34,305 nt of DNA, taken from assembly GCA_021399345.1 (NCBI GenBank), contig JAAFKI010000197.1, positions 1 through 34,305 of the forward strand. The letters are read 5' to 3'. This document shows positions 1,555 through 31,969 of this stretch, piece by piece. Below the pieces are notes generated by a model that was not told where the DNA came from, did not search any database, and worked only from the letters and a program-made list of their open reading frames with translations. A program made the translations under genes and the position numbers. The first letter of the stretch is position 1; each line of letters opens with the position of its first letter. The stretch comes from Candidatus Heimdallarchaeota archaeon. Lineage in GTDB: Archaea > Asgardarchaeota > Heimdallarchaeia > Heimdallarchaeales > Heimdallarchaeaceae.

Positions 1555-1616
1555 GATGGTACAATGTAACAGAAGCTTTCACAAGATTTTTCAATAATGT
1601 CCATAACATTAGTTTA

Positions 1617-3101
1617 ATGATACCAGGTACTCTACGACCTTTACCTAAAAAAGTAAAGGAAGTAAAAACAGCTGTTGATTTACTTCTTAGAACTGTTGAT
1701 TTTGATATTGAGAATACAAAAGACATCTTTAAGGATAGTTCTCTCTATACTTTTGAAGAAATAAATTCACATTATATGAGAATTATTGATCAATATACTC
1801 AAATTAGACCTCTCACAAAAGATGCAGACAAGCTTGTTGATAAGTACGTCAATGATTATCTTCTGAATGAATTAGTTTATGGTCAATTTACTAAGTTGGA
1901 AATGAGAGAAAATAGATTAAAAAATGATATTCAGCGACTTGATACCGTATTGATGTCAAAAAGGAAAAAATACATTGAAGAAATGATCCCACGATTTAAG
2001 GATGAAATATCCAGTAAACTCTCCTTTATGCAAGATTTATCATTTGATGAAATTCTAGAAAAAGGTCAACTTTATGGAGAAACCATAGGGGAGATAGTTA
2101 ACAAAATTAGTGGAATTAGAGATGAGTACATCAAGTTATCATCTGGTTCTTTTGATGTTTCAGAGTTTTATTCATACTTAGATGAAAGGTTAACTGGAGT
2201 AGAAGAACAAGTAACAGCTTATGATTTAATTTTGCGAACTTGTAAGATGCAGATGCTTTCAGAAGAAGCTGAAATGTATATTGAAAATGGAAATGTAATA
2301 AACAATGAGTTTGAAGTGGAAGCTTCTAGTGAATTAGTCCTTAAGGGAGATGAATATGTTAACAAAGCTACAGGAAAACTTGAGGAAATGATACTTCTTA
2401 GAGTAAATCTCCCCAGAAGAGGTATATCTAAAGAATTTTCTACTAATTTTAAGAATCTCTCAATCACTTTTGAGGAACATAAGAATAGTCTAGGAATTAT
2501 TATTGAGAGTCTTCAAACAAAAACAACTCGACTTTCTTCACAAATAGAAAGAATAAATGCACTCAAAGCGATAGCTGAATCTGATGGAGAGGAGATTTAT
2601 GAGGTTATAGAGATGCTCAATATTAAACGCAAAGGTGCGTTTAAAACTAAAGTAGGGGAAGGCTTTCCTGTTTTTGAGCTTAGTCCTTTAGGGAAAATTA
2701 AGATGCCTTTAGGTGTTGAATTTACAACCCCAATGATAGAAGAAATTCTAACCGTTTTAGATGAAATCGAAGGAACAACTTACAAAGATGATATGATACT
2801 AAGATGGAAGACAATGAAAATTGGAGAAATTACAGAAAACATTGGCAGGAAGATGGCTCCAGCTTACAAAAAAACCAAAGAAGTAACAATAAAATCTGGT
2901 AAGAAAATAGGTGAATTTAGCAAGAAAGCCTATGTTGGTACTAAGAATCTTTTCACATCAGACAAAGAAGGAAGAGATGCTAAAGAACCCAGAATAAAGA
3001 AGGAAAAGAAACCCAAAAAGGAAAAAGTAAAAGAGGAAAAAATAGAAGAGACAATCTCAGACGAAGAAATCGAAATACCTCCTCCACCAATAGAAGACTG
3101 A
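1617..3101 (+). CDS. Hypothetical helical/coiled-coil protein with Lys/Glu-rich, polyproline C-terminal tail
   Basis: 494-aa ORF, E/K/L/I-rich, no recognised catalytic motif. Ends KKEKKPKKEKVKEEK...EEIEIPPPPIED. Confidence 0.75.
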   Translation: MIPGTLRPLPKKVKEVKTAVDLLLRTVDFDIENTKDIFKDSSLYTFEEINSHYMRIIDQYTQIRPLTKDADKLVDKYVNDYLLNELVYGQFTKLEMRENRLKNDIQRLDTVLMSKRKKYIEEMIPRFKDEISSKLSFMQDLSFDEILEKGQLYGETIGEIVNKISGIRDEYIKLSSGSFDVSEFYSYLDERLTGVEEQVTAYDLILRTCKMQMLSEEAEMYIENGNVINNEFEVEASSELVLKGDEYVNKATGKLEEMILLRVNLPRRGISKEFSTNFKNLSITFEEHKNSLGIIIESLQTKTTRLSSQIERINALKAIAESDGEEIYEVIEMLNIKRKGAFKTKVGEGFPVFELSPLGKIKMPLGVEFTTPMIEEILTVLDEIEGTTYKDDMILRWKTMKIGEITENIGRKMAPAYKKTKEVTIKSGKKIGEFSKKAYVGTKNLFTSDKEGRDAKEPRIKKEKKPKKEKVKEEKIEETISDEEIEIPPPPIED

Positions 3102-3118
3102 TCTAAGGTGCAAAAAAT

Positions 3119-3916
3119 TTGAAGAACTTACTTCAACAAATAAAATATTTTATTTTTGATGTAGATGGTACACTTCTGTTGAGTAACAAAGTTCTTCCTT
3201 ATGCTTATGAAGTTATCAAATTAATACAAGAAAAAGAATTGGATTTCACGATTCTTTCAAACAATTCTTCATATTCAATAGCTGAAAACAAAGAAAGGTT
3301 AGAGAGAGTTTTAGGAGTTAAACTGGATTACTCAAATATTTACACTTCTACACAAGCATCCATTGATTATTTATTGAAAAATCACTATGACCAATGCTAT
3401 ATTGTGGGTACTCCTTCAATGATTGAAGATTTTGAAAATGCGGGGGTATTCAACACTGTGATAGATCCTAAAGCGATAGTTCTGGGTTTCGACAAGACTC
3501 TTACTTATGAAAAAATTTCTAACGCAGCTCTTTTGTTACAAGAGAAACCTGTAATTCCTTTCTTTGCAACACATCCTGACGATACTTGTCCTGTTGAGGG
3601 TGGTAAGATCCCAGATGTAGGTTCCTTTCTGAAAATGTTTGAACAAGCAACAGGTAGAACAGCTGATATTATCTTCGGAAAACCCAATGAAATGATTTTG
3701 AAACTCTGCTTAGGTAATTCTCAAGTAGGCTTTTCAGAAGTTTTAGTTATTGGAGATAGACTTGAAACTGATATTAAAATGGCTAATTCTGTGGGTATTA
3801 ATAGTGCACTAGTACTTACAGGAGAAACTCAAAGAGAACATTTAGAAAAAAGTGATATATCTCCCACATTGATATGGCAAGATCTGGAAATTCTTCTTAA
3901 TTTTTTAAATAAATGA
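3119..3916 (+). CDS. HAD-IIA family hydrolase (NagD-like sugar/nucleotide phosphatase)
   Basis: Motif I FDVDGT, motif II LSNNS, motif III FGKP, motif IV IGDRLETDI; also VLTG. TTG start. Confidence 0.9.
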   Translation: MKNLLQQIKYFIFDVDGTLLLSNKVLPYAYEVIKLIQEKELDFTILSNNSSYSIAENKERLERVLGVKLDYSNIYTSTQASIDYLLKNHYDQCYIVGTPSMIEDFENAGVFNTVIDPKAIVLGFDKTLTYEKISNAALLLQEKPVIPFFATHPDDTCPVEGGKIPDVGSFLKMFEQATGRTADIIFGKPNEMILKLCLGNSQVGFSEVLVIGDRLETDIKMANSVGINSALVLTGETQREHLEKSDISPTLIWQDLEILLNFLNK

Positions 3917-3917
3917 G

Positions 3918-4844
3918 TTATTTCAGAAATTTGACAATTTCCTTAAGTGAATCCCATTGATTTTCTGAATATAACCAGCCTAATACTACGCTATCAACTA
4001 GTCTATTATTCTGGAACTCCTTAATTAGTTCCATCCTCTCAAGTACTTCTTCCAACGAACCTATAATACCGAAATCATCTACTACCTTCAGTATCTCACC
4101 CTTTGGAACAGAAGTATATGGCTCCCATTTAAGTTCTCGAATCTCTCTTATCATTTGTGAAGAATAACCATGTTCTTTTAAAATCGATGTTGAACAGCCT
4201 TTAGCTATATCCTTGGTAATATTCCACAAAGTTTTGGAAATTTCTTGCTTATTTGATTGTATTTGCATCATTCCGTAGGGTATAATGGATTTATTTGAGT
4301 GACTTTCATCTTTTTTGTATACTGCTATTGCTCGATTGATATCAACATCAGCTATACTATTAAGTAGTAAATGTTCTGCTTTCTCTTTTGCATAGTTTAA
4401 CATTTTATTCCCAAGACCACCAAAAGCAACAGGTGGAAAATCATCTAACTTCAATTGCGTTTTTCTGATATGTGCAATTTCAAGTAGCTTATTCAATGAG
4501 CTCTTAAAACTGCTAAAGGGTTTTAGAGAAATATCTTCATCTTTGAATACATCTGGATTACCAATTCCTAAACCTAATCCAAATCTATTAGGGAAGTTAT
4601 TGTTAAGCCAGATACTTAAGGCAAAAAGTACTTCGAGAGAATAATAGAAAGGTGATGTTATTCCTGTCCAGATTTCAATATCCTTAACAGCCCTCAATAA
4701 TCTTCCAATATCCAAAAATGCATTATTTATAGGTGGATTGTCTCCTACCCAAATACTCTCAACACCTATTGATTTGGCGTCATGAGCATAAATTTCCTTT
4801 TCTTCTCCTGACATTCGTATTGGGATGGAAAGCCCCACTTTCAT
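3918..4844 (-). CDS. LLM-class (luciferase-like/Mer-like) flavin- or F420-dependent oxidoreductase, divergent
   Basis: MKVGL start, GVESIWVGD, GITSP, NRFGLGLGIG, PVAFGGLGNKML and C-terminal IIGSLEEV match the LLM TIM-barrel pattern. Confidence 0.7.
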   Translation of the reverse strand: MKVGLSIPIRMSGEEKEIYAHDAKSIGVESIWVGDNPPINNAFLDIGRLLRAVKDIEIWTGITSPFYYSLEVLFALSIWLNNNFPNRFGLGLGIGNPDVFKDEDISLKPFSSFKSSLNKLLEIAHIRKTQLKLDDFPPVAFGGLGNKMLNYAKEKAEHLLLNSIADVDINRAIAVYKKDESHSNKSIIPYGMMQIQSNKQEISKTLWNITKDIAKGCSTSILKEHGYSSQMIREIRELKWEPYTSVPKGEILKVVDDFGIIGSLEEVLERMELIKEFQNNRLVDSVVLGWLYSENQWDSLKEIVKFLK

Positions 4845-4904
4845 ATTGATAAAAGAAGTTTACTCATTCTTGTAGTTTGTGCTAGATTAATTTGTTCCAA
4901 TGTA

Positions 4905-4918
4905 AGTTTTTTATATAT
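4905..4918. promoter_or_regulatory. TATA-like element in the divergent LLM/nitroreductase intergenic region
   Basis: TTTTTTATATAT about 30 nt upstream of the ATG at 4949, a typical archaeal spacing. Confidence 0.45.
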
Positions 4919-4948
4919 CCGGTTTTTTTTTGTTAGTGAAGTGGTTTC

Positions 4949-5455
4949 ATGGAAAATATTCTTACAAGAAGAAGTATCAGGAAATTCCTTAGTACTCCAG
5001 TATCTGATGACGATATAGACACTATTCTTAAAGCTGCAATGAGCGCTCCTTCAGCTGGCAATAAACAACCTTGGGATTTCATAGTTGTAAAGGATAGAAA
5101 ATTATTAGACAAAATACCAGAAATTCATCCGTATGCGAAAATGGCTCAAGAAGCTTCAGTTGCTATCATTGTTTGTGGTGATACAAGACGAACAGATACT
5201 AGAGGTTTTTGGGTACAAGACTGTGCAGCTGCATCTCAAAATATCCTTTTAGCAGCAAATTCTCTAGGGTTGGGTAGTGTTTGGTGTGGAATTTATCCAA
5301 AGCAAGATTTATATGAAAAATTCCAAGAGATGTTTAACTTGCCAAAAGAAGTTTACCCCGTCTCTTTTCTACCCATTGGATATCCTGCAGAGGAGAAACC
5401 TCCTTCTGATCGTTATGATGAAAATAGATTACATTATAACAAATGGAAAGAATAA
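4949..5455 (+). CDS. Nitroreductase family protein
   Basis: RRSIRKF, APSAGNKQPWDF, DCAAASQNILLAANSLGLGSVW, IGYP. Confidence 0.93.
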   Translation: MENILTRRSIRKFLSTPVSDDDIDTILKAAMSAPSAGNKQPWDFIVVKDRKLLDKIPEIHPYAKMAQEASVAIIVCGDTRRTDTRGFWVQDCAAASQNILLAANSLGLGSVWCGIYPKQDLYEKFQEMFNLPKEVYPVSFLPIGYPAEEKPPSDRYDENRLHYNKWKE

Positions 5456-5484
5456 GCAAAAAAGAAGGAAAATTTAATTTTCTA

Positions 5485-6306
5485 TCAAGTCATCTTTATG
5501 ATAGCTTTTTCTCTATTAAAGATATTAGTTGCCAATTTAAAAAGAAAGATTATAATTACTACTAATATTGCTATTCCTCCAATAAGTGTAGCGATTGAAT
5601 TGAAGAAGAAACTAATTATTCCTGCTACAATTAGAAAAATTAATGGAAGAACAACCAGAGATCCTATCTGATATGAATCTCTAACGCTCTTTACTTTTGT
5701 TGAAATCATGATCATTAATTCTACACTTACAATTGAAATCAGTGGCCCAAAAACTAGTACAAAAATAATGGACAGGAAGTCAGGAAATAGAATCTGACCT
5801 ATGAAAGGATAGATTAGTATGTCTGTAATTATCATATACCCTCCAGCTGCAACGAATGTTGCAAAGATTGAAGGAATTAATGATGAAGTGATTTTAGCAA
5901 AAACTATCTCAGTTTCTGTTATAGGAGATGCCAAAATAGCTTCCATAGTCTTTCTCTCTTTTTCACCAACAATCGTTTCAGAAGCTGTTATTGCAGGAAT
6001 AATTATAGGAAGCATTAGAACCATCACGAACATTACATATGCCATCATAATTAGAGTTTGAGCATGCATATTCAGTGATTCCCAATTATTAACAGTAGAC
6101 GCGAATAAGTTGTTAATAAAATCAGGAAAAGTATCGTCTCCTTCAAAATCAGCTGGATTGATATTAGTAATGGGTAACAACCCGCTTAATGGGATCAGAA
6201 CAGCAAAAATAAGAGGAACCCCTATTATAGCTGAAAGCACATATTTTGATTTTGTAAACTCAATAAGATCCTTTTTGACTAAAGCCCAGATTCTTCTCCA
6301 CTTCAT
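5485..6306 (-). CDS. ABC-2 type exporter permease
   Basis: About 6 TM segments and IVGEKERKTMEAILASP motif; 4-bp overlap with the upstream ATPase. Confidence 0.9.
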   Translation of the reverse strand: MKWRRIWALVKKDLIEFTKSKYVLSAIIGVPLIFAVLIPLSGLLPITNINPADFEGDDTFPDFINNLFASTVNNWESLNMHAQTLIMMAYVMFVMVLMLPIIIPAITASETIVGEKERKTMEAILASPITETEIVFAKITSSLIPSIFATFVAAGGYMIITDILIYPFIGQILFPDFLSIIFVLVFGPLISIVSVELMIMISTKVKSVRDSYQIGSLVVLPLIFLIVAGIISFFFNSIATLIGGIAILVVIIIFLFKLATNIFNREKAIIKMT

Positions 6307-7292
6307 GATTCTTCCTCCTCTTGGTTTCGTGGAAGATTTTCACTCATCACTAGTTCCAGATATACTCGTTCTAATGTTGGATATTCATGTCTAACTTCAA
6401 ACATAGGAAAATTCTGTTTGATTAATTCATCAATAATAGTAGGAGTTTCTTTTTCTATTTCTTTGATGAAGATAGAGATAGATTTTCTTTCAGGATCAAT
6501 TTCTAAAACATCATAATTTCGTTCCTGGAAGAAGTTTTTGATTACATCATCCCAAACTGTAAATCTAAAAACTGTTGTTGTTTCATCTTTCTTTAAATCG
6601 CGAAGCTGATTTGGAGTTCCTTCAGAGATTAGTTTTCCATGATTAATTATTCCAACCCTCGTAGAAAGTTTTTCAGCTTCAAAGAGATTATGGGTACATA
6701 AGAAGAAAGTACGTTTTTCTAGTTTGGATAACTTCAATATTTGATCTCTCACAACTTTAGCAGATTCGGGAGCGAGCGATGCAGTTGGTTCATCTAGAAA
6801 AATTACAGGTGGATCATGTATCATCGATCTAGCAATAGCTACCTTCTGTCTCATTCCTTTACTTAGTGAACCGGCAGGTAAGTCAATTTTTTCAGGTAAA
6901 TCAAAAAGATCAATTAATTCTTCGATTCTTGGTTTAATTTCCTCTTTAGGGACATCATATAAGTTAGCGATAAATGTTAAATTTTGACGCACTGTCAATC
7001 TTTCATAAACTGCGGGAGTTTCAGTTAGAAGACCTACTATACTTCTTACTTGAGACGCATCTTCTACAACATCAAGTCCAAGAATTCGAGCTCCACCAAC
7101 AGAAGGTTGTAAAATTCCTGCTAAAAGGCGTGTAGTCGTGGTTTTACCCGATCCATTGGGACCAAGAAGACAGTAGATTTCTGATTTTTCTATTGACAGA
7201 TTAAGACCATCAACTGCTCTTAGGTGAGCTCTTTTTCCATCCTTTTTTATATCATAATCTTTAGTTAAGTTTCTAGTCTCTACAGCTAACAT
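6303..7292 (-). CDS. ABC-2 exporter ATP-binding subunit
   Basis: Walker A GPNGSGKT, signature LSKGMRQK, Walker B IFLDEPT, H-loop CTH, C-terminal TLERVYL. Confidence 0.95.
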   Translation of the reverse strand: MLAVETRNLTKDYDIKKDGKRAHLRAVDGLNLSIEKSEIYCLLGPNGSGKTTTTRLLAGILQPSVGGARILGLDVVEDASQVRSIVGLLTETPAVYERLTVRQNLTFIANLYDVPKEEIKPRIEELIDLFDLPEKIDLPAGSLSKGMRQKVAIARSMIHDPPVIFLDEPTASLAPESAKVVRDQILKLSKLEKRTFFLCTHNLFEAEKLSTRVGIINHGKLISEGTPNQLRDLKKDETTTVFRFTVWDDVIKNFFQERNYDVLEIDPERKSISIFIKEIEKETPTIIDELIKQNFPMFEVRHEYPTLERVYLELVMSENLPRNQEEEES

Positions 7293-20202: not shown

Positions 20203-21045
20203 ATGGCTATCAATTACTCAACTATTCTACCACATGGTTTTAATTTAATAGAAGAAATTTATCCTAATCCTAATGATGAATGGAAACAGCTCATCGAAGC
20301 TATGAAATTAGTAGCTAAAGAGATTTATGAAGTTGATCCACAAGTAATCATTATTGCTTCTCCACATAATCTGAGGATAGATGGGCAAATTGGTATAATC
20401 ACCTCAGAATGGATTGAAGGAATTTGGTGGAATGATGAGAAAACAAAGAAAGCAGAACTAAAATTCAAAATTGACAGAAGTACATCCAATCTTATTTATC
20501 AAAGAGCGAAAATGATGGATTTGCCAATTGTGGCTGTTAACTATGGAGCTGCAGAAGGAGAATATTCATCAATGAAAATGGATTGGGGGACAATGATTCC
20601 TCTTTGGTATGTAAATGAGATTTACAAACAAAACAAGAAAGATGTTCCTCCTGTTGTCTTGATCACTCCATCTAGAGAAATACCCTGGTCTAATCTAGTT
20701 GATTTTGGGAAGATGATGAATGGAGTTTGTGTCAATAACAAAATCAAATCAGTTTATATCGCTAGTTGCGATCATGGTCATGCACATGATCCGGACGGAC
20801 CTTACGGTTATCATCCCGCTTCCAAGGTTTTTGATGATCAGATAACTGAGTTGATTCAAAAAAATGAACTGAATAAAATATTAACTCTCTCGCCAGAATT
20901 CTTAGACCATGCAAAACCTGATAGTTTTTGGCAAATGCTAATTTTGTTAGGAATTTTAGAAGTTTCAGATCTAAAAAATGATTTGTGTGTTTATGGATGT
21001 CCTGAATACTATGGAATGATTGTAGCTGGATTTAAGAAGATTTGA
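20203..21045 (+). CDS. LigB/class III extradiol dioxygenase-like (Memo/LigB fold) protein
   Basis: LPHG, IIASPH, DWGTMIPL, ASCDHGHAH, GPYGY, FDD, YYGM. Confidence 0.8.
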   Translation: MAINYSTILPHGFNLIEEIYPNPNDEWKQLIEAMKLVAKEIYEVDPQVIIIASPHNLRIDGQIGIITSEWIEGIWWNDEKTKKAELKFKIDRSTSNLIYQRAKMMDLPIVAVNYGAAEGEYSSMKMDWGTMIPLWYVNEIYKQNKKDVPPVVLITPSREIPWSNLVDFGKMMNGVCVNNKIKSVYIASCDHGHAHDPDGPYGYHPASKVFDDQITELIQKNELNKILTLSPEFLDHAKPDSFWQMLILLGILEVSDLKNDLCVYGCPEYYGMIVAGFKKI

Positions 21046-21090
21046 TTTCAAATGGATAGTTATATTGGTAAGACTTACATATTTTATTCT

Positions 21091-21099
21091 GTTTCACTA
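21091..21099 (+). repeat. Dispersed motif copy 1 (GTTTCACTA)
   Basis: Matches the first 8 nt of the GTTTCACTGA copies and overlaps the right arm of an 8-bp inverted repeat TGGATAGT(21053-60)/ACTATCCA(21096-103). Confidence 0.4.
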
Positions 21100-21147
21100 T
21101 CCAATAAAGAGAAATAGCTTCTTTAGAGATACATTTTTCTTCTTCAT
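21097..21147 (-). pseudogene. Possible 5' remnant of a secreted-protein gene (MKKKNVSLKKLFLFIG*)
   Basis: Basic-then-hydrophobic start like the local signal peptides, TATA-like element about 45 nt upstream, and a stop codon inside the GTTTCACT motif. Confidence 0.3.
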
Positions 21148-21404
21148 CTTTTCTAACTTCCATGATTCTCTTTCATAAGTTACATGTGGATATAAAACTA
21201 ATAATTTGGAGTCTATTTGAAGAAAAAAGGAAAGGGAATTTTTGAATCATATAAACTTCCCTTATCAACCAACTAAAAAGAAAAACTTCGCACTAATCTC
21301 TCCTTTAGTATTCCTGATACTGTTAATACATATGGTTTTTGTTTACAGTAGAAGAGAATCAAAAAATACAATAAAACCTAAAAAGCCAAAGTTGTTCAGA
21401 TGTA

Positions 21405-23084
21405 CTATCTTTTTCTTTTAGAACTAAATCGGAAATAACCAAATACAATTAGTGGGATAAGTACAACTAAAGAAAGAAATGAATAGTAAATATTCTTATT
21501 TCTATAAACTGGAGGTTCAGAGAGAGGATAAGGATCTTCAGTTCCTGCAAATCCGTCTATACTATAGCTACCTACTCCTAAATAGTCTTCCCAGTAATTA
21601 CCTTCTAGAGTTGACAAATCATACCAAAGATTATTTTGTCCATCATCTTTTGCTTGAGCTGTTCCATAATATTGATTGTTATTTCTGAAGGAATTATGGT
21701 GTATTGAATTGTTTTTCGAGTATAGATCCAGAACCACTCCCCAAAAAGGATTTGATTCAAAAGTATTATATGTAATTGAACAATACGATGTATATTCAGC
21801 TAATATTCCATACAAACCATTAGAAGTACTAATGGAATTTAGCACTTCAATACTATAGGAGTATCTAAGGTGGATTCCTCCTTCATTATTTGAGCTCAAA
21901 ATAGAGTCTTTAAACATTAGTTGATTTGAAAATAAAACACTAATAGCAATATGAGTATTGGAGATTATTTGGTTAGAAATAACCCCTTGGGTACAATTTA
22001 TTATAACCAGTTGTCCATAATTGCTTTTTCTGATTTTAAAATCTTGTAAGTTAATTAGAAAACCTAAGGGTTTTCCGTTAACCAAATTGGAACTTACTTC
22101 ATATGTCAAGAAAATTTCAACTTTGTCATCTGAAAATTCAAAACCACAGTTTTCTAGCTGATTTTGATAAATTCTTGAATTTTCAGATTTTTTAACCCAA
22201 ATTCCAATACCTGAAGTTGAACAATAGTTATTCTCAACAGAACAATTTTCTGAGGATGAAATGAAAATACCCCTTCCCGATGCAAAACAACTATTGTCAG
22301 TTACAATGACATCACTTGAATAAATAACAAAAATGTTGTTATTTAAGTTATCACTGCAATAATTGTTAGTTACATATGATGAATTCGAATCTACAAGTCG
22401 TATTCCTCCATTAATAGTGTTGTTATGACATGAATTCTTTTCTACAAAAGAACGTTTACTTCCGTCAAGTAAGAGTCCACCTCTCAGGTTATTAGTACAA
22501 GTGTTATTTGAGGCTATACTTGAATTACAGTTTGAAAGATACAGTCCAACCCAATTATTTTTTGTACAATAATTATTAGAAATAATAGGGTTATGTGAGG
22601 ATCCCACAACTATTCCATGCCAAGAGTTATACTTGCAGATATTTCCAGTAACAGTAGTGTAATTCGAATCTAAAACTCTAATACCATGATAGAGATGATT
22701 TGTACAAGTGTTATTGATAATTTGCGCTGTTCCAGCTGACACATTCGATACATGAATGCCATAACTATCTGCATCTATATAACAATCACTTATAATGAAG
22801 AATTTTGAAGTATTGATAATTTCTATTCCTGAAGTAACATTCGTTGTTATATTCAAGTTTTGAATTAAAAAAGGAGATTCTGGAGTTCCATTGCCTGGAA
22901 ATCCATAAAAAGAAAAAGCTGTATCATTTTTAATTAATATAGGGGCATGATTAATAAGAAGTAATAAAGAATGTGAATCACTGGTTTCATCTATGTTCTC
23001 TGCTGTATTAGTGACATTTTGAATGCTCACTAAAAAAAGAAAAAAAAGAAGAAAAGCTAGTACTTTTGAATATTTCACACTCAT
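21405..23084 (-). CDS. Right-handed parallel beta-helix (NosD/CASH/pectin-lyase-like) surface protein
   Basis: Signal peptide from ATG 23084, HAPILI, GNGTPESPFLIQN, many GI.L..S....I.NN.C..N repeats, GNYWEDY, DPYPL, C-terminal TM and KRKR. Confidence 0.88.
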   Translation of the reverse strand: MSVKYSKVLAFLLFFLFLVSIQNVTNTAENIDETSDSHSLLLLINHAPILIKNDTAFSFYGFPGNGTPESPFLIQNLNITTNVTSGIEIINTSKFFIISDCYIDADSYGIHVSNVSAGTAQIINNTCTNHLYHGIRVLDSNYTTVTGNICKYNSWHGIVVGSSHNPIISNNYCTKNNWVGLYLSNCNSSIASNNTCTNNLRGGLLLDGSKRSFVEKNSCHNNTINGGIRLVDSNSSYVTNNYCSDNLNNNIFVIYSSDVIVTDNSCFASGRGIFISSSENCSVENNYCSTSGIGIWVKKSENSRIYQNQLENCGFEFSDDKVEIFLTYEVSSNLVNGKPLGFLINLQDFKIRKSNYGQLVIINCTQGVISNQIISNTHIAISVLFSNQLMFKDSILSSNNEGGIHLRYSYSIEVLNSISTSNGLYGILAEYTSYCSITYNTFESNPFWGVVLDLYSKNNSIHHNSFRNNNQYYGTAQAKDDGQNNLWYDLSTLEGNYWEDYLGVGSYSIDGFAGTEDPYPLSEPPVYRNKNIYYSFLSLVVLIPLIVFGYFRFSSKRKR

Positions 23085-23127
23085 CTTCTCACATCTTTTC
23101 TTATTAATCTTATTGTGATATATTCCC

Positions 23128-24234
23128 TTATCTAGATAAACAGAAATCTTCACCATAATAGTTAGATCTCTTTGGAAAAGTAACTGTACTATATTCAGGT
23201 AGCTCTAGAAGGGCAAAGAGATTATGTGCTATATATGCTGTATAGAAAATACTATCGAAACTTGCAGTTGTGCTCAAATCATATCCTGGAGGGGTACGTT
23301 CAGAACTTCCTCCCCAAGAGTATCTAAGGAAACAATAAGTCCAGCATCCTAATTCATTGCCTTCATCTTCGTAAGCAATTTGATTTATATCTGCGGCTGC
23401 AGCTAAAAAGAAATGACTCTTAATACTCAAATCAGCTATTCCTGTATCCATTCCATAGCTATGACAACTGTCAAAAAAGAGGAATATTCTTTCAGCTTTA
23501 CAGTCATCAAAGATATTAGCAAGCTCTGTATGGTTGAGAAAGCCATCCTCTCCTCCTCCACCAACATCAGCATCTTCCATACACAAAGAGTATGCTCCCA
23601 CATTGTCTCCGTGTCCTGAGAAAATGAAGGCTATTATATCTCCTCCATCTGCGTTCGATACAACATAATTAAGTTCTGATTTTACATTGCTTTCTGTAGC
23701 TTTTCCTATGCCTTCCTCCGCGTCGTCTTCATACTGTTTAACGTAATCAAAATCTAAACCAGTTGAATTTGTTAAATGTTTATTCCATTCATCTGCATCA
23801 TTTTCACAGTACAAAAGAGTTGTGTAGTTATCATGTGCATAATCATTTATTCCAACTATTACTGCATATGTTTTCACAAATATTAGTTCGAAATCATATA
23901 TCCAAGGTTCTCCTATGTCCCTAGCTAAAACATGGACTGATTCAGACGTATAGTTGGTTTTTGAAACATGCAGTGTCAAGTAATCTGTTGTACTTACATA
24001 TTCTCTGAATTCGTAATGACCATTCCCTTCAGTTATATAAGTATCTAATGTGATACTGCCTTTTTTCAACTTAACAGTAGCTCCGCTGAGGTTGCCTTCT
24101 TCATATGTAATAGTTCCGTTCCATTCTACCCAATTCCAGAACGCAGAAACGTTGTTTGTGTTCAGAACTGAGGACAGCGAAAATATTACAAGGATTAATA
24201 ATCCTATCGTTTTTACATTTTTATTTACTTTCAT
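23128..24234 (-). CDS. Secreted caspase-family (peptidase C14) protease with N-terminal carboxypeptidase-regulatory-like beta domain
   Basis: YAVIVGINDY, LYCENDA, catalytic His FSGHG, catalytic Cys FFDSCHS; signal peptide; LSGATVKL...GNGHYEF domain. Alternative GTG at 24243. Confidence 0.85.
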   Translation of the reverse strand: MKVNKNVKTIGLLILVIFSLSSVLNTNNVSAFWNWVEWNGTITYEEGNLSGATVKLKKGSITLDTYITEGNGHYEFREYVSTTDYLTLHVSKTNYTSESVHVLARDIGEPWIYDFELIFVKTYAVIVGINDYAHDNYTTLLYCENDADEWNKHLTNSTGLDFDYVKQYEDDAEEGIGKATESNVKSELNYVVSNADGGDIIAFIFSGHGDNVGAYSLCMEDADVGGGGEDGFLNHTELANIFDDCKAERIFLFFDSCHSYGMDTGIADLSIKSHFFLAAAADINQIAYEDEGNELGCWTYCFLRYSWGGSSERTPPGYDLSTTASFDSIFYTAYIAHNLFALLELPEYSTVTFPKRSNYYGEDFCLSR

Positions 24235-24370
24235 TTTTTTCACTGATTATTTTTTTACCACATACAGTGGCATACTTATATTTAGATTTGAGTATTTAAG
24301 GTGCTAGAACATTTCATGACAAGTGAAAAAATGAATCTAGAAGCATTGAAATCCTTTTTTCTATTCATTC

Positions 24371-24494
24371 CTCCTTTCGTTCATGTATAAAGCTTTTATA
24401 GTAGTACGAAGGAGAAAAATTGGAGCTAGTGACTTTCCTTTGCTTTACTTTCGTTTCACTGATGAATTTAGTTTAAGGGTTTGAGCTAGCTCCA
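24371..24494. other. Two adjacent imperfect hairpins; the second contains motif copy GTTTCACTGA (24453-24462)
   Basis: CTCCTTTCGT/ACGAAGGAG around TATAAAG-CTTTTATA; TGGAGCTAG(24421-29)/CTAGCTCCA(24486-94) with inner TCCTT/AAGGG and TTCGTT/GATGAA. Confidence 0.5.
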
Positions 24495-24738
24495 TCATTC
24501 TTCGACAATCTTCTGTTATATCTTATTACTTAGTTGAAACCATTGTCGTTCTATGAATTGAATGCTCACATATTTAAACAGATTTCTTTATATAAACATC
24601 ATTGATACAAACTGAAAGACTATTATCCTGAAAATTTATCAAGAACATCATACAGATGATTTTCTTCTTCGAAAATCAATTCCTTTTCCCCAATATATTT
24701 AAGAAAATGTAATTATAATTTCTCACCAAATAGGAGTT

Positions 24739-25488
24739 ATGAAAATGGATCATATTGGTAAAGAATTCATGAAAAAAACTCAATATAAATTTGTTTCAAG
24801 CTCTGATCAGAGTCAACAACTTCCCCAACCACCTCTTGAGATGGAATATGCTCATAAGATGAGAAGTATAAATTTACCAAAACCTGAAGAGATAGAAATA
24901 GATGATTATAGTTTAAGAAAAGCTATTGAAGAAAGAAAAAGTGTTAGAAAATATTCAGATGAACCCATTACTTTGGAGGAACTCTCTTGGTTACTATGGG
25001 CAACACAAGGAGTCAAAGAAGTTCATGGAAATAATTCGGCTACACTACGAAACGTCCCTTCAGCTGGCGCTAGACATGCTATTGAAACTTTCTTGTTGAT
25101 TAATAATGTCAAAGACTTTGAACCAGGAATCTATAGGTATATAGCTTTGGAACATAAACTAGTAGAATATATTCTTGAAGAAGGAATAGATGATAAAGTA
25201 GCTGAAGCAGCTTATGGACAAAAGATGGTGAAAAATGATTCAGTAACTTTTATCTGGGTCGCAGATATTTATCGTATGTTCTGGAGATATGTTGAGCGAG
25301 GATACAGGTACATTCACATAGATGCGGGACATATTTGCCAAAATCTCTATCTAGCAGCTGAAAACATTAACTCAGGTGTTTGTGCTATTGCAGCTTTTCA
25401 TGATGAGATGTTTAACGATTTACTTAAGCTTGACAAAGATGAACAGTTTGTCGTCTATTTGGCATCCGTTGGGAAGAAAAATAAATGA
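24739..25488 (+). CDS. SagB/ThcOx-family FMN-dependent dehydrogenase (nitroreductase superfamily)
   Basis: RKSVRKYS, LEELSWLLWATQG, RNVPSAGARHAIE, PGIYRY, RYVERGYRY, DAGHICQNLYL. GGAG SD-like sequence upstream. Confidence 0.92.
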   Translation: MKMDHIGKEFMKKTQYKFVSSSDQSQQLPQPPLEMEYAHKMRSINLPKPEEIEIDDYSLRKAIEERKSVRKYSDEPITLEELSWLLWATQGVKEVHGNNSATLRNVPSAGARHAIETFLLINNVKDFEPGIYRYIALEHKLVEYILEEGIDDKVAEAAYGQKMVKNDSVTFIWVADIYRMFWRYVERGYRYIHIDAGHICQNLYLAAENINSGVCAIAAFHDEMFNDLLKLDKDEQFVVYLASVGKKNK

Positions 25489-26507
25489 TTGAAAATAAGA
25501 AGAAATTCTACTTTACTTTAGCTTCAATATTACTAGTTTCAGCTCTACTGACTGCACTAGTAGCAATAGTTGAACCTCAACTTATGCTAGGGCAAAATAT
25601 TATTTTCAGTATCTTAGTATTTACTTTCTTAACAGTAATTTTTGCTCTACTTATTCCTCCTGTTAACAAATTTGTGATAGATCTGTTGAAGCAAAAATAT
25701 CTCTACTATATACTCTCCTCTAGTATATTGTTGTTCCTCCCTTTGCTAAACTGGATTTATGCAATTGAATTCAAACAAGCTGGTATCTCATTCCTTATTT
25801 GGTATTTTCTACCTACAATTCTATTTATTGTCCCAGCTTTTTTTGAAAATTTTAGATTTGATTTCCTGTTTCATATAGCTGCTGTAGTGCTGTTTGCAGT
25901 TGGTTTTGATGGAAGATTCACGTCTGATACTCTTTCAGGTTTTAGTTCTTCTGAGTACAATTTTAACGCATTATGGGTAAGTTCATTAATTCTCCTACTC
26001 TATTCAATTCAGCTTAATGAGTTTGAAGAAAAGACCAACTGGAAACCTTCGAAAAAAGGAGTATTATATGCTTTAAATTTGAGTGCAATTCTTGCAATTA
26101 TATCAATTCCTATCGGTCTATTAACTAACTTTCTAGAATGGTCTCCTAATTTTTCTGATGTGCCAATGATTTTTATCTCATTTATTGGTATTTGGTTTAC
26201 AATTGCCCTCCCAGAAGAATTAATTGCAAGAGGAGTTATCCAGCATCAACTTACTAACAAAGTTGTTAAGAAAGATGGAAGGTATTTCAAATACTGGAAG
26301 TGGGGTATCCTAATTGTCGCTTCTGTTATCTTTGGTATAAGTCATTGGAATAATACTTCGCCAGAGTTTATTTGGGTCTATATTCTGCTTGCATCTATAG
26401 CAGGAGTTGCTTATGGTATTTGTTGGTGGAAAGGCGGTCTATTTTCAGCTATACTTATCCATACTCTAGTTGATTGGGTGTGGCAATTATTCTTTAAAAC
26501 AACCTAA
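25485..26507 (+). CDS. CPBP (Abi/CAAX) family intramembrane glutamic endopeptidase with extra N-terminal TMs
   Basis: EELIARG, FGISH, HTLVDW motifs; about 10 TMs; ATGA overlap with the SagB-type gene. Confidence 0.88.
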   Translation: MIENKKKFYFTLASILLVSALLTALVAIVEPQLMLGQNIIFSILVFTFLTVIFALLIPPVNKFVIDLLKQKYLYYILSSSILLFLPLLNWIYAIEFKQAGISFLIWYFLPTILFIVPAFFENFRFDFLFHIAAVVLFAVGFDGRFTSDTLSGFSSSEYNFNALWVSSLILLLYSIQLNEFEEKTNWKPSKKGVLYALNLSAILAIISIPIGLLTNFLEWSPNFSDVPMIFISFIGIWFTIALPEELIARGVIQHQLTNKVVKKDGRYFKYWKWGILIVASVIFGISHWNNTSPEFIWVYILLASIAGVAYGICWWKGGLFSAILIHTLVDWVWQLFFKTT

Positions 26508-26562
26508 TCATCCCACGGAATTATTTTTAAATGAGTTTTCTTGTTAGAAATTGGTTAATGAT

Positions 26563-27438
26563 ATGGTAAAAAAGTACCCTGTCTTTGTTCTTTGTGGTAG
26601 AGATGAGAAAAAGAGAGAAGTTTTGGAAGATTTAGACCCAAATGATGAATATAAAGTTAAAGCTCTTTTACCCTTCTTAGGCAAAAGAATAATAGATTGG
26701 CAACTAGAAGCCTTAAGAGAGTCTCCTTACTGTGGAGAAATATTCCTCTTAGGTATTCAAAAAGAGATGGCATCATTTGACTTTCCAGTCCATTATGTAC
26801 CAATTCCGCTTATTTCAACTTTTGGACAAAAACTACTAGCAGGTCTGGAATATACCAGATCACAAGGCCTAGACGATAATATGTTTGTTGTTTCTTCTTC
26901 AGATACCCCAGGCATTACAGTAGAGCCAATTAATGATTTTTTTGAAATACTTGATAATTATCTAGATTATGATTTCATCCAATCTGTTGTACCTGAAGAT
27001 GTTAGTAAAAATGTATTTTCTGATCACCAAAGAGTCGTAGCGAAATTCAAGGAAATAACAGTATTCACTGGGGAACTGTATGCTATGAGTGAAAAGGGAA
27101 TTAGAACTGGTCAAAAAATTATTGATGAAACTGGAAGCGGAAGACGTAGAATTAGAAAAGAAAACAGAGAAAAAAAGAGTAGTGCATTAACTCCTATTAT
27201 CAGAATTGTACTTAGAAAACCAAGAACATGGCCATTAATTATCAGATTTCTTTTAGGAAGAATGACTTTAGCTAAAGCAGAAAAACTTCTTGAAATAATA
27301 GGAAATGTCAAAGTCAAAGCAGTGATCATTAATGATGCCGCTTTTGGTATGGACATTGACCTAACAGATGACTACATGAAAGTCAAAAAATATGTAAGCA
27401 AAATAAAAAATGTTCCTTTTACTGAAGGGATAAGTTAA
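26563..27438 (+). CDS. MobA-like NTP transferase (NTP_transf_3-type), paralog 1
   Basis: VLCGRD, KALLPFLGKRIIDW, SSDTPGI, FGMDID. ATG 26563 (TTG 26551 is the alternative). Confidence 0.8.
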   Translation: MVKKYPVFVLCGRDEKKREVLEDLDPNDEYKVKALLPFLGKRIIDWQLEALRESPYCGEIFLLGIQKEMASFDFPVHYVPIPLISTFGQKLLAGLEYTRSQGLDDNMFVVSSSDTPGITVEPINDFFEILDNYLDYDFIQSVVPEDVSKNVFSDHQRVVAKFKEITVFTGELYAMSEKGIRTGQKIIDETGSGRRRIRKENREKKSSALTPIIRIVLRKPRTWPLIIRFLLGRMTLAKAEKLLEIIGNVKVKAVIINDAAFGMDIDLTDDYMKVKKYVSKIKNVPFTEGIS

Positions 27439-27455
27439 AGATTAGACTTAACAAG

Positions 27456-27488
27456 GTTTCACTGAACAATTTGTATTGTTTCTGTGAA
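27456..27488. repeat. Motif copy GTTTCACTGAA (27456-27466) forming the arm of an imperfect hairpin
   Basis: TTCACTGAACAAT-TTGT-ATTGTTTCTGTGAA between convergent genes; 11-bp direct repeat of 28584-28594. Confidence 0.55.
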
Positions 27489-27528
27489 TATAAACGGTTA
27501 GTATTTAATGAAGTCAAGTGGTAATATT

Positions 27529-28467
27529 TCAATCGAATACGATTCTCATAAATTCGCTGTTTCCCATTTCATATAATTTATCAGCTATATCTACCATTTG
27601 TTGGTGGTCAGTTGATTTTTCGTAGGTTGCGAAGCGGATATGAGATTGTCGAAATCGCCAAATAGATGTTAATATCGCAGCGTAAATGCAAAATAGATTT
27701 AAAGATTTTATTTCAATTGGTGTTAACGATTTCACTTCTTGGTATCCTTTTATTAGAGCTTTCGTGTAGCTCATATCAACTATTTTATCCATAGTTAGCA
27801 ATCCTGTTATGGCCATACCCAAATCGAAAATCAAGAGATAATTTGAAACATCCTCAAAATCAATAATTGCTACCAGATTTCCATTTTTTTGAATAATATT
27901 ATCTGGAAATATGTCACCATGAACCAATCCAGTTGGTAGTTGGTCTGGAATTAGTGCCTCTATATATTCTAATTTGGTTTTAAGCCACTCAATATAGGGA
28001 TGATCAATATCTGAGGAGGTTACTTCATCAAGATAAGATAAACCGTAGGGAGAAGCGGTTTGGATATTATCTGGACAGGGAATCTCATGTAACTGGGCTA
28101 TGCGCCTACCTAATTGTTCAACAAATTGTATTGTGGGTCTCTTCACTATCTCTCCGTCAAGAAATTTCTTTAAATAGACAGGTTTACCATTATGTTCGAG
28201 TACATATTCGTGATCTTTTGACAAAATCACTTGATTAGTTTGAAAATGGTGTTTGTGAAGGTAGATCAACAATTTCGTTAAGGCTAGGGTTTGTTGCCTA
28301 GTTACATATTCACAGATGGTTAGGATATGTTTCTGAGTTTTATTTTGGATAAAATAATTTGTACTAGATCCCCCCGACATTGGATAAAATTTGATAATTT
28401 TACCGAGTGAATATGCATTTGCAAATTTAGTAATTTCTTTTGAGGTGAGAATTGTATAATGAGCCAT
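27529..28467 (-). CDS. Homoserine kinase type II-like phosphotransferase (APH/choline kinase fold)
   Basis: MAHYTIL start, STNYFI, ILTICE, IAQLH, Brenner motif HGDIFPDN, IIDF, FDLGM, GYQEV, WRF. Confidence 0.8.
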   Translation of the reverse strand: MAHYTILTSKEITKFANAYSLGKIIKFYPMSGGSSTNYFIQNKTQKHILTICEYVTRQQTLALTKLLIYLHKHHFQTNQVILSKDHEYVLEHNGKPVYLKKFLDGEIVKRPTIQFVEQLGRRIAQLHEIPCPDNIQTASPYGLSYLDEVTSSDIDHPYIEWLKTKLEYIEALIPDQLPTGLVHGDIFPDNIIQKNGNLVAIIDFEDVSNYLLIFDLGMAITGLLTMDKIVDMSYTKALIKGYQEVKSLTPIEIKSLNLFCIYAAILTSIWRFRQSHIRFATYEKSTDHQQMVDIADKLYEMGNSEFMRIVFD

Positions 28468-28580
28468 CTGAAATGAACACTTTTAATTTGTTTTATATCT
28501 TTATAAGATAGTCGATTTCAAGGATGTCGACCTGCTGTAGATATGAAAGGACCCATGCAGTATTTCAGATGTACAAAATG

Positions 28581-28599
28581 ACTGTTTCACTGAAACAGT
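28581..28599. promoter_or_regulatory. Perfect inverted repeat ACTGTTTCA-C-TGAAACAGT (operator, parS-like or recombination site)
   Basis: 9-bp perfect arms with a 1-nt spacer in the divergent intergenic region, 34 nt before ATG 28634. Confidence 0.6.
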
Positions 28600-28633
28600 A
28601 AAAAACTAGTAGTGTAATTATATTAGGGATAAG

Positions 28634-29449
28634 ATGAAAATACCTATTTTGATATTTGCTGGAAGAGATGAAGAAAAAAGGGAATTTTTGAAAGAATTGG
28701 ATCCTGAAGGAAAATATAAAGCCAAAATTCTATTTCCGATGCATGGTAAAACTGTAATAGAATGGGTTGTTGAAGAATTTCAAAAATCTTCTATGGTAGA
28801 GGAAATATATATTCTTGGACTAACAAAAGAGGATATTGATATAAAAGGTAATGTTCATTATGTTCCTATTGGTCTCAAATCAACCCTTGCTGAGAAATTC
28901 AATGCGTGTCTTGATTATTTAGAACAACATGGAAAATTCAATGATTTTGTCATTTTCTGTAGTAGTGATTGTCCTGGAATCAAAGTTAAAACTATTGAAT
29001 CATTTATAAATTTTGTACAGGAAAATAAGGAACTTGATTTTATCATCTCCTTGATTACTAAAGAGACTATTGAAGAAGTTTTTCCAGATTCAGGTAGAGG
29101 TCTTGCGATATTGAAAGATATTAATGCAATTCAAGGTGAATTAATGATGATTAGCTCAAAGGCTATCAAAAAATATGGGCATGTGATTGATAGTTTTATG
29201 CGGTTAAGAAAGAAGAGGTCACTGGGACCCTTTCTAAGATATGTTGCTAGAAGACCTTTAGCTTGGTCAAAATTAATCAAAATCGCTCGGGGGAAGGGTA
29301 CTCTAGATGATGCGATAATCGCTTTTCGTCGAGCTTTTCGACTTAATGCTGCAGCACCTGTTTATGATGATCCAGGTCTTGGCTTAGATATGGATTTACC
29401 AGGAGATTATGAGCGTTTGAAAGATTATGTTAAGAAAACAAAGATGTAA
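28634..29449 (+). CDS. MobA-like NTP transferase, paralog 2
   Basis: IFAGRD, KILFPMHGKTVIEW, SSDCPGI, LGLDMD. Confidence 0.8.
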   Translation: MKIPILIFAGRDEEKREFLKELDPEGKYKAKILFPMHGKTVIEWVVEEFQKSSMVEEIYILGLTKEDIDIKGNVHYVPIGLKSTLAEKFNACLDYLEQHGKFNDFVIFCSSDCPGIKVKTIESFINFVQENKELDFIISLITKETIEEVFPDSGRGLAILKDINAIQGELMMISSKAIKKYGHVIDSFMRLRKKRSLGPFLRYVARRPLAWSKLIKIARGKGTLDDAIIAFRRAFRLNAAAPVYDDPGLGLDMDLPGDYERLKDYVKKTKM

Positions 29450-29475
29450 TTAGAATAATTGGGATTGTGAAAAAA

Positions 29476-30309
29476 ATGAAAAAATATCCGGTTTTCCTTA
29501 TGGCAGGAAGAGATAAAGAAAGAAGAGAAATTATGCAAGTTTTGGATCCAGAAATGAAATATAAATCAAAATGTCAGCTGGATCTCTTGGGAAAACCTAT
29601 CATTCAATGGGTTATTGATGAGCTGGAAAAATCGAAATACGTTGATCAAATCTATATTTTAGGGCTTTCTGAGGAGGATCTTCAGCTGAAAGGGAATTTA
29701 GAATACATTCCTGTTGAAACAACAGCTGAGGTTTATGACAAGTATAGAGTCGGTTTTGACTATTTGATAGAAAAGGGAAGATATCATGATATGGTTATAA
29801 TGTGTGGTTCGGACATTCCTGCTGTCAAGATAGAAAGCATAGATGAATTTCTTCAAGTAGTGTCTGAAAAGGAACATTATGATTTTCTTTGGGGAGTCGT
29901 TCCAATAGAAATAGCTGAAGCTGAGTTTCCTGAACCTGATAGGACAGTAGGTCATTTTAAAGATCATAGTTTATTCCCAGGCGACATTTTTGCTTTAAGT
30001 TACAGAGCAATTGAAACTGGTGAAGATACCATTCGGCAATTTTCTGATAGTCGGAAAAAAAGGTCTTTCTGGACAGTTGTTTGGTTTATAGCTAAGAAAC
30101 CAAGAACCTGGTTAAAAATAATCAAAGTATTCCTTAAAAGAGCAACAGTAAAAGATGGTATTCGTATTTTTGAAATTGCGTTCGATTGTAAAGCAGATAT
30201 TGTGATTATAGAAGATTTAGGTTTTGGATATGATATGGATTTGATCCAAGATTATAAAAGATTAGAAAAATATGTATCAAAAACCAAGTTGAAACCAGAT
30301 AAGAAGTAA
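29476..30309 (+). CDS. MobA-like NTP transferase, paralog 3
   Basis: LMAGRD, KCQLDLLGKPIIQW, GSDIPAV, FGYDMD. ATG 29476 (GTG 29467 is the alternative). Confidence 0.8.
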   Translation: MKKYPVFLMAGRDKERREIMQVLDPEMKYKSKCQLDLLGKPIIQWVIDELEKSKYVDQIYILGLSEEDLQLKGNLEYIPVETTAEVYDKYRVGFDYLIEKGRYHDMVIMCGSDIPAVKIESIDEFLQVVSEKEHYDFLWGVVPIEIAEAEFPEPDRTVGHFKDHSLFPGDIFALSYRAIETGEDTIRQFSDSRKKRSFWTVVWFIAKKPRTWLKIIKVFLKRATVKDGIRIFEIAFDCKADIVIIEDLGFGYDMDLIQDYKRLEKYVSKTKLKPDKK

Positions 30310-30312
30310 GGT

Positions 30313-30993
30313 TTATTCAACCTTTTTTTCTATTGTTTGAGTTTCTAGAATTTTAGGTTTAATGAATGAGAATACTCCTAAAATTACTGCAAGCAAGAGA
30401 GCATACTTACACATAATACTAGGTACCTTAGTGGCAAAATAACTATCTACCCAGACCATTAAATACATTGGAACCAGAAAAGATAGATAACCTATCAACA
30501 CAAATAGACTGGATTTTCTATCAACCTTATTTCTACGAAATATTAAGTGAGCAGCAAGAAAGAATATACTATAAACTAAGATGCCCATATAGTAAATACC
30601 ATAGTAAAAAGAATGATGGACTGAGTAGACTGCATAAAAAGGATTACAACTATCAAGAACTACTGATCCTGGTGTAACTATATAATATAACGAAAAACCT
30701 GTAGCAGCTGCAAATCCTATCCAATAATCTGGGAATTTCCATCCAACAACCTTAGAACTAAGAAAGTAACCCATAGGTGGAAGGAAAGTAATGATTGTGT
30801 AAGCTATTTTACCTGTAATGTTTTCGTTAACCCCTATACAGATAAGAAATTCTGCTAACTGATACAGCTGTAAAAGAACCAGCATCATTGCGATTGACCA
30901 GAAGAATGGATGCTTCCTATTGAAGATAATAACAGCTACTAGTATGAAAAACTCTATCCCAAAGAAGATAATCGAGAGAGTACCTGGAAGCAT
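30313..30993 (-). CDS. Uncharacterised ~7-TM membrane protein (stand-alone HisKA_7TM-like)
   Basis: About 7 hydrophobic segments; LQLYQLAEFLIC, ITFLPP, PSIMC. Confidence 0.7.
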   Translation of the reverse strand: MLPGTLSIIFFGIEFFILVAVIIFNRKHPFFWSIAMMLVLLQLYQLAEFLICIGVNENITGKIAYTIITFLPPMGYFLSSKVVGWKFPDYWIGFAAATGFSLYYIVTPGSVVLDSCNPFYAVYSVHHSFYYGIYYMGILVYSIFFLAAHLIFRRNKVDRKSSLFVLIGYLSFLVPMYLMVWVDSYFATKVPSIMCKYALLLAVILGVFSFIKPKILETQTIEKKVE

Positions 30994-31114
30994 TAGATGC
31001 TTCTTTTCATTATGTCATATAAATGCTTCTAAACGGACTGTGGAGTATTTTGCACAATCGTTGCAATGGACTCTTTAAAAAGGCAGCCACATTTTTTATA
31101 GGTGGATAAATATC

Positions 31115-31969
31115 ATGAAGAAGAAATTTCCCATTTTGTTAATGTCTGGAAAAGATAAAAATATCCGAAGAGAAATAATGCAAGTGTTAGACCCTGATGA
31201 AAAGTATAAAGGGAAATGTCTTCTCCCATTTCTTGGTAAACCTGTTATTGCATGGGTTGTGGAGGAATTAGTAAAATCTGAATATGTTGAAGGGATATAC
31301 TCTCTAGGTGTATCTAGAGAAGATATTGATTTTGGTGACCAAGTAGAATATGTTCCAGTAGATTTCCTTGCAGATTTACATGAAAAATATCTTGCAGGGT
31401 ATGAATATCTTAAAGCGCAAGGGAAAGAATTTGATGACTATGTAGTTTGTATGGCAGATACACCAGCAATAACTGTAGAAAGAATAGATGAATTTCTGAG
31501 TCAACTTTCTGAAATGGAAGGTTATGATTTTGTTTTGCCTTTAGTACCTTACGAATTATCTAAAAAATGGTTTCCTGATGCAGGAAGAGTAACTGGCAAT
31601 TTTCGTGATTATGAAGTCTTTCCTGGTGAAATGCTTTCTTTCAGTGCTAAAGGGATTGTTGAAGGGCAGAAAATAATTGAGGATATAAGCATCTTACGAA
31701 GAAAAAGATCATTTTGGGCAGTTGCTTGGTATGTTTTCAGACGTCCTGCAACTTGGGGAAAACTATTGAAAATCGTCCTAAAATTAGCAAAACTGAAGGA
31801 TGCCATTAGAGTATTAGAACTGGCTTTCAAAATCAAGATGGGTTGGATGATCATTGAAGATCTTGGTTTCGGTCTAGACATGGATGTTTCTCAAAATTAT
31901 GAACAATTGGAAAGATATATGCTAGAAACTAAATTAAAAGGCAAGGAAGTTACTCGTAGTGAAATCTAG
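31115..31969 (+). CDS. MobA-like NTP transferase, paralog 4
   Basis: LMSGKD, KCLLPFLGKPVIAW, MADTPAI, FGLDMD. AGGTG SD-like sequence upstream. Confidence 0.8.
   Translation: MKKKFPILLMSGKDKNIRREIMQVLDPDEKYKGKCLLPFLGKPVIAWVVEELVKSEYVEGIYSLGVSREDIDFGDQVEYVPVDFLADLHEKYLAGYEYLKAQGKEFDDYVVCMADTPAITVERIDEFLSQLSEMEGYDFVLPLVPYELSKKWFPDAGRVTGNFRDYEVFPGEMLSFSAKGIVEGQKIIEDISILRRKRSFWAVAWYVFRRPATWGKLLKIVLKLAKLKDAIRVLELAFKIKMGWMIIEDLGFGLDMDVSQNYEQLERYMLETKLKGKEVTRSEI

Follow-up and report, generated by a model that had tools for sequence, protein, structure and literature searches.

The 34,305-nt stretch of contig JAAFKI010000197.1 analyzed here (C144; hereafter the window) belongs to the genome of a Candidatus Heimdallarchaeota archaeon (assembly GCA_021399345.1, labelled G000; 3.27 Mb, 33.5% GC, 88.6% complete), and it raises the question of how a lone minus-strand kinase gene, flanked on both sides by the same 11-bp word, came to lie between two plus-strand nucleotidyltransferase genes. 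An earlier reading made from the letters alone (the sequence-only reading) had taken this repeat, built on the motif GTTTCACTGA, for part of a multi-site system that captures gene cassettes. By comparison with relatives (labelled G001–G046), we arrive at a different answer: the two copies of the word, at 27456 and 28584, are interpreted as the attL and attR attachment-site cores that remain where a mobile element with a tyrosine integrase of the pNOB8 (Y-x-x-R) type integrated site-specifically, a reading to which we assign a probability of about 0.8. The features of the site are the following, P1 to P4 denoting four tandem nucleoside triphosphate (NTP) transferase paralogs:

26551–27438, plus strand: NTP-transferase paralog 1 (P1; Pfam NTP_transf_3), left host flank of the integration site
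27456–27466, plus strand: left core copy, 11 bp (putative attL core); a single copy lies at the same place in G006
27467–27497, plus strand: predicted arm of element origin (P' arm), repeating in inverted orientation the arm that closes the inserts of relatives
27495–28553: kinase unit, 1,059 bp, 94% nucleotide identity to G001 and G005
27529–28467, minus strand: APH-fold small-molecule kinase (Pfam APH, 2e-27), the sole surviving gene of the insert
28552–28583, plus strand: 32-nt right-end spacer, possibly a degenerate P arm; kept in G009, G013, and G018
28584–28594, plus strand: right core copy, 11 bp (putative attR core), at the center of the palindrome 28581–28599
28634–29449, plus strand: NTP-transferase paralog 2 (P2), part of the conserved array
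starts at 29467 and 31115: P3 and P4, MobA-like NTP-transferase paralogs

That something was inserted here is apparent from relatives with an unoccupied site. The P1-P2-P3-P4 array is conserved across the family, and the gap between P1 and P2 measures ∼92–118 bp in most genomes. In G006, P1 is followed by one copy of the core and then by P2; its alignment to the window ends at 27439 and resumes at 28583, with 10 bp between, which is the empty site (paralog 1, a single motif copy, paralog 2) that the sequence-only reading had predicted. At least 11 further family members have a gap of this size, most of them with a related word at the same place, and in more distant members of the genus this word is GTTKCACTG, situated a few bases upstream of the TATA-like box of P2. 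Because the word is kept at the same place in empty sites, the target is host sequence that is both old and promoter-proximal; in the window, the right core lies ∼40–50 bp upstream of the P2 start codon.

In a clade of five genomes (G000, G018, G009, G024, and G013), by contrast, inserts lie between two copies of the core, which is thus duplicated around inserts and single in the empty site, as in integrative elements. The content of the inserts varies. In G000, G018, and one metagenome contig it is the kinase; in G009, the kinase and a further 533-bp segment that includes a small open reading frame (ORF); in G024, a Zn-dehydrogenase gene replacing the kinase; and in G013, in order, a 55-bp unit, the kinase, a second, near-identical 55-bp unit, and a large insert running onto another contig (C159). 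This second contig (L022, positions 1524–6593) encodes a 1134-residue NACHT-LRR protein and nSTAND3/TPR fragments, a defense-like cargo.

Different as their contents are, the inserts share their ends when aligned on the core: they close with a conserved, ∼20-nt arm followed by 8 nt and the core, and open with the core, 11 nt, and the arm in inverted orientation. The opening arm (27467–27497) is conserved in G000, G009, G013, and G024 regardless of the sequence behind it and occurs once in the G000 genome; the other arm is confined to the P1–P2 locus among 25 genomes of the genus. At the junctions between the tandem inserts of G013 there is a complete arm-core-arm imperfect palindrome (L015, 15863–15949 and 17046–17132). 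Inverted arms around a core, as seen there and in the layout after the P0002 integrase gene (below), are the arrangement found at attP sites, and we predict that the arms bind the recombinase.

The inserts of two relatives also hold remnants of a candidate enzyme. In G024, a 71-codon ORF reads toward the core and stops 6 nt from the arm; the fragment (68–71 residues) aligns with the final 50 positions of PF00589 (E = 4.9e-4) and shares 59% identity with the C-terminal end of a 314-residue integrase of G012. The conserved arginine of its Y-x-x-R motif is replaced by glycine, which marks this ORF as a pseudogene fragment. In G013, the final 12 integrase codons stand at the corresponding place (stop 6 nt beyond the arm), and a 35-residue fragment lies further in. 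The integrases of G012 and G046 have PF00589, a SAM-like N-terminal domain, and the Y-x-x-R motif, the signature of pNOB8-type integrases (PMC8371274). A database search with the fragment returned two full-length PF00589 proteins, P0001 (81% identical) and P0002 (74%). The P0002 gene is directly followed by the arm, a center of ∼30 nt, and the inverted arm, the central sequence being different, and the sequence downstream of P0001 matches the remnant locus of G013. Since in these intact relatives the site lies just past the stop codon, the arm-center-arm arrangement is a property of the integrase family, with the center setting the target. An intact 319-residue integrase of the pNOB8-type family seen here, followed by an arm-center-arm site with a different center, was noted on a metagenome contig (L090, 4237–5273) and marks a candidate for an element that is still active.

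A tyrosine recombinase gene inside the element, beside its att site, is therefore intact elsewhere (P0001 and P0002), reduced to remnants in G024 and G013, and not found in the window or in G000. The sequence-only reading had placed the recombinase elsewhere in the genome, in the manner of an integron; the remnants lie instead inside inserts at this same site, beside the core. The search of the genome for tyrosine or HUH recombinases that it had proposed yielded none: no integrase was found in G000, and HUH/Y1 transposases (REP- or IS200-like) were rejected as candidates, none being found in five genomes.

From these observations we infer the following course of events. The 11-bp word in the promoter-proximal spacer between P1 and P2 would have served as attB, and attP would have lain directly past the integrase stop codon, its two inverted arms of ∼20 nt enclosing a center of ∼30 nt with the core. 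Recombination of attB with attP, presumably catalyzed by a pNOB8-type integrase, would have inserted the element and left one copy of the core on each side. The element in the window would then have decayed to its integrase-side arm (27467–27497), the circulating kinase gene, which may have entered the element at some stage, and the 32-nt right-end spacer; with the integrase lost, the kinase module is probably frozen. In relatives other inserts occupy the same site, some of them in tandem and separated by complete arm-core-arm junctions. Reading the locus as an att scar accounts jointly for several of its traits: the word is single where the site is empty and repeated where it is filled, the inserts have arms in common, stumps of an integrase remain, the cargo varies, and tandem junctions are present.

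Several observations weigh against this reading. No integrase was found in G000 (88.6% complete), G013, or G009, as judged by the lack of any PF00589 match, and none of its remnants were detected in the window, where tblastn with two family integrases gave nothing significant; likewise, no PF00589 match was found among the window ORFs scanned from 17426 onward. Viral and metagenome collections yielded neither a circle nor a free element bearing exactly this core: two exact patterns had no match in viral contigs and a single one in metagenome contigs, with the window's own structure, and viral contigs scanned by way of integrases gave nothing. A clear arm is missing at the right end of the kinase insert. 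In G009, an incomplete copy of the host-side flank takes the place of the arm expected at the left junction of the insert, which one simple integration does not explain. Finally, the homology of the kinase to its other locus (below) ends ∼30 bp inside each core, and the kinase was thus not itself moved by crossover at the core. The missing right arm, the G009 junction, and the twin 55-bp units of G013 suggest later core-to-core deletions or exchanges.

The kinase has a history distinct from that of its neighbors. It is related to type II homoserine kinases (NCBIfam homoserine-kinase models match below their cut-offs, and PDB entry 2ppq matches at 1e-23), and in G001, G005, and G023 it is found at another locus, beside GH4 glycosidase genes. 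The homology has sharp ends, spanning 27495–28553 for G001 and G005 and ending earlier, at 28497, for G023; the spacer at 28552–28583 is missing from the G001-type context. The kinase is 89–94% identical to its counterparts in these three genomes, whereas their P1–P3 are only 64–73% identical, and within the clade it is more diverged (92–93%) than the adjacent P1 (97–98%), from which we conclude that it circulates horizontally within the genus. Judged by these identities, the kinase is a recent, horizontally circulating arrival in the nucleotidyltransferase cluster, and to count it among the ancestral partners of the four NTP-transferase paralogs would be a mistake.

This mobility is also what would be expected if the P1–P2 spacer were a working exchange platform, at which integrase-less modules (the kinase, the dehydrogenase, the 533-bp ORF, a small secreted protein, the 55-bp unit, and the NACHT-LRR genes) are captured, stacked, and swapped at the 11-bp core through a pNOB8-type integrase supplied in trans, much as integron cassettes or cis-mobilizable elements (CIMEs) accrete, the latter at the attachment site of an integrative and conjugative element (ICE). 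The kinase is about equally identical (92–94%) to close and distant genomes, as if repeatedly exchanged; several of the short inserts lack an integrase; and the tandem units of G013 have complete arm-core-arm junctions and include the two near-identical 55-bp units. Such an arrangement has precedent in the bacterial, conjugative ICESt1/CIME system of Streptococcus thermophilus, in which integrase-less, att-flanked segments form tandem arrays with full att junctions. The integrase-less, att-flanked segments and the tandem junctions of G013 resemble that system, but no mobilizing element has been identified here. Moreover, the integrase remnants of the G024 and G013 inserts lie in cis, there is no integrase beside the array (nor was one found in G000, G009, or G013), the arms occur at one locus only in the 25 genomes, and crossover falls at the center of the palindrome, whereas in attC it falls at an end. 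We therefore consider an exchange platform improbable; if real, it would give Asgard archaea their own counterpart of integron or CIME accretion, identical to neither.

The decayed integrative element that we favor has its closest counterparts among the classical (non-suicidal, pNOB8-type) elements of archaea, which share the Y-x-x-R motif, the core duplicated at both ends, and an integrase gene left whole beside attP (PMC8371274). It differs from them in that the target is a promoter-proximal word between paralogs and not a tRNA gene (none is present in the window), in that the integrase has been lost in every copy here, and in that a single site holds several inserts of different content. 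Intergenic att sites have been documented in archaea (PMC8371274). The elements described from Heimdallarchaeum (HeimV1, HeimM, and aloposons) bear integrases, integrate site-specifically at tRNA genes, and measure tens of kb, some with giant genes (PMC8813620); the kinase module belongs to the same archaeal group and shares site-specific integration with them but is a 1.1-kb remnant at a non-tRNA site. Archaeal integrons with attC cassettes have also been reported (Ghaly et al., 10.1101/2022.02.06.479319). The inserts studied here recall integron cassettes in being short gene modules between imperfect palindromes, variable in content at one locus. They differ in that no integron integrase or attI lies beside the array, in that the modules have their own upstream regions and face either direction, and in that their boundaries are central, whereas attC crossover takes place at the 3' end of the palindrome (at G/TT of the R' box); nor does the core match GTTRRRY. 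The pdif (Xer) modules of Acinetobacter plasmids are bounded by 28-bp sites (11-6-11) in alternating orientation. These too are small gene modules bracketed by short recombinase sites, but the cores of our locus are direct repeats, all in the same orientation, and no Xer-type gene was found. The kinase module is accordingly best classed as a degraded classical tyrosine-integrase element, without the marks of integrons, pdif modules, or DDE transposons (below). Its analysis reveals no new recombination system; it does provide a defined att site (core and arms) and a matching integrase family for Heimdallarchaeota, a group in which few mobile elements have been mapped, and one non-tRNA site that has gathered different cargo in sister species, including NACHT-LRR genes.

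The broader cassette system rested on the distribution of the motif. As had been stated, GTTTCACTGA occurs exactly in the same (plus-strand) orientation at 24453, 27456, and 28584, all three copies lying outside ORFs of at least 80 amino acids, whereas 0.11 copies would be expected by dinucleotide shuffle and none of 100 shuffles gave three; the last two copies do form an identical 11-mer in direct repeat around the kinase gene. When one mismatch is allowed, six matches are found vs. 3.2 expected (10 of 100 shuffles gave six), and at this chance level the near copies at 21091 and 24237, which had been listed beside the exact ones, carry no weight. Genome-wide there are 18 copies on both strands against 7–10 expected (Markov orders 1–5), 12 of them in ORFs; outside the window only 3 of 15 are intergenic, so there is no enrichment between genes. 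This near-background count, which the sequence-only reading had proposed as a check, speaks against its cassette system, and a genome-wide repeat family was rejected on the same figures and on the absence of the arm sequences elsewhere in G000. Even the local triple is weak evidence when taken alone, because a random order-3 genome would contain ∼34 comparable words with three copies inside 4.2 kb, or ∼0.36 per 34-kb window, and with a background-like genome-wide frequency the local cluster needs comparative evidence.

Each of the four main copies had also been said to lie in or on an inverted repeat, which is true of three: the 28584 copy has the core at the center of a perfect 9-1-9 palindrome (28581–28599, 19 bp), the 27456 copy lies in an imperfect hairpin (DNA fold z −2.2), and the 24453 copy lies within a 70-nt hairpin (RNA fold z −3.9). 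The near copy at 21091 has no inverted repeat (z 0.0). The palindrome is missing from empty-site relatives outside the G000 clade and thus represents a derived state of that clade. Its resemblance to a dimer site would fit a motif that is a protein-binding operator near promoters (parS-like or a helix-turn-helix dimer site), with the kinase having entered by non-specific recombination and the repeat a by-product; so would the conservation of the related word upstream of P2 across the genus and the regulatory-looking surroundings of the third copy. We find this very unlikely, given that the left copy, set in a convergent spacer, is downstream of each of its neighboring genes; that the word is repeated only where an insert is present and is single otherwise; that several independent structural variants pivot on the same 10–11 bp, with shared arms and integrase remnants; and that the motif shows no intergenic enrichment outside the window (3 of 15 copies). 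Hardly credible at all is an origin of the repeat as the target-site duplication of a DDE-type transposon bounded by terminal inverted repeats. The 10–11-bp direct repeat on both sides of the inserts and the inverted repeats close to their ends would fit it, but the arms stand 8 and 11 nt back from the repeat rather than abutting it, the target word is identical each time, no transposase was found in the window or the inserts examined (and no Y1 transposase in five genomes), and the enzyme remnant beside the arm is a tyrosine recombinase.

The remaining motif copies lie in and around a second module to the left of the array, where the features are:

20203–21045: LigB-like gene
21027–24646: second, independent-looking 3.6-kb insertion made up of a remnant ORF, the beta-helix and caspase genes, and an upstream region; not bounded by the motif
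21091–21099, plus strand: near motif copy inside a coding-derived remnant, judged to be due to chance
21405–23156, minus strand: NosD/beta-helix gene (Pfam NosD/Beta_helix)
23128–24243, minus strand: caspase C14 gene (Pfam Peptidase_C14), putative GTG start
24423–24492, plus strand: conserved hairpin or double-operator element with the third exact motif copy (24453–24462) in its loop; RNA fold z −3.9
24739–25488: nitroreductase gene
25485–26507: CAAX-protease-like gene

This layout agrees with the description of both modules as minus-strand islands inside plus-strand gene runs. The beta-helix and caspase genes do belong to a true insertion: G013, G024, and G006 lack 21027–24646 and show a clean junction in the final codons of the LigB-like gene, of which the insertion exchanges the last three for five others. 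The motif copies at 21091 and 24453, which had been thought to bracket this module, were nevertheless rejected as its ends, since the breakpoints (21026/21027 and 24646/24647) fall 64 and ∼185 bp from them, and neither a direct repeat nor a recombinase was seen at this insertion. Thus, the proposal that site-specific recombination had captured modules of 1–3 kb is supported for the kinase module, with its empty site and varied inserts on the same core, but neither for the beta-helix/caspase module nor as a genome-wide cassette system, the motif being near background and the arms confined to one locus.

Individually, too, these copies have other origins. The near copy at 21091 lies within a minus-strand remnant ORF (21032–21163, 43 codons), whose DNA is ∼80% identical to an internal part of a 305-residue ORF in G012, G008, and G004; the motif is not kept in the matching ORF of G012. 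On the strength of this match the remnant is probably a gene fragment brought in with the insertion; its identification as a restriction-enzyme fragment was not upheld, the G012 relative having no Pfam match. The near copy at 24237 shares bases with the GTG codon at which the caspase ORF putatively starts. The region of the 24453 copy is identical to the arm-core junction at 17 of 19 positions. The hairpin around it, together with an adjacent palindromic TATA-like stretch (24385–24492), has homologues upstream of caspase modules in G005, G001, G020, and G008, in which the motif is only partly retained, and because the word varies among them the exact match at 24453 is probably coincidental. 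Accordingly, neither the 24453 copy nor either of the near ones is related to the integration system of the kinase site, which leaves the latter as an ordinary kind of archaeal integration site and not a new cassette system.

A few minor observations concern the two modules. The four paralogs of 26551–31969 are diverged, tandem, MobA-like nucleotidyltransferases, an array kept in three of the five family genera searched, and P2 has a weak match to a pseudomurein-biosynthesis model. No Rfam family matched within 20900–28800, the hairpin at 24423–24492 included; this hairpin may have a regulatory role as a site or else represent a small RNA. It recurs at L076 5021, L079 2874 (minus strand), and L080 4229 and 8206 as elements of 64–70 nt with invariant CTAGCTCC ends, and G020 carries two beta-helix/caspase/hairpin modules in tandem.

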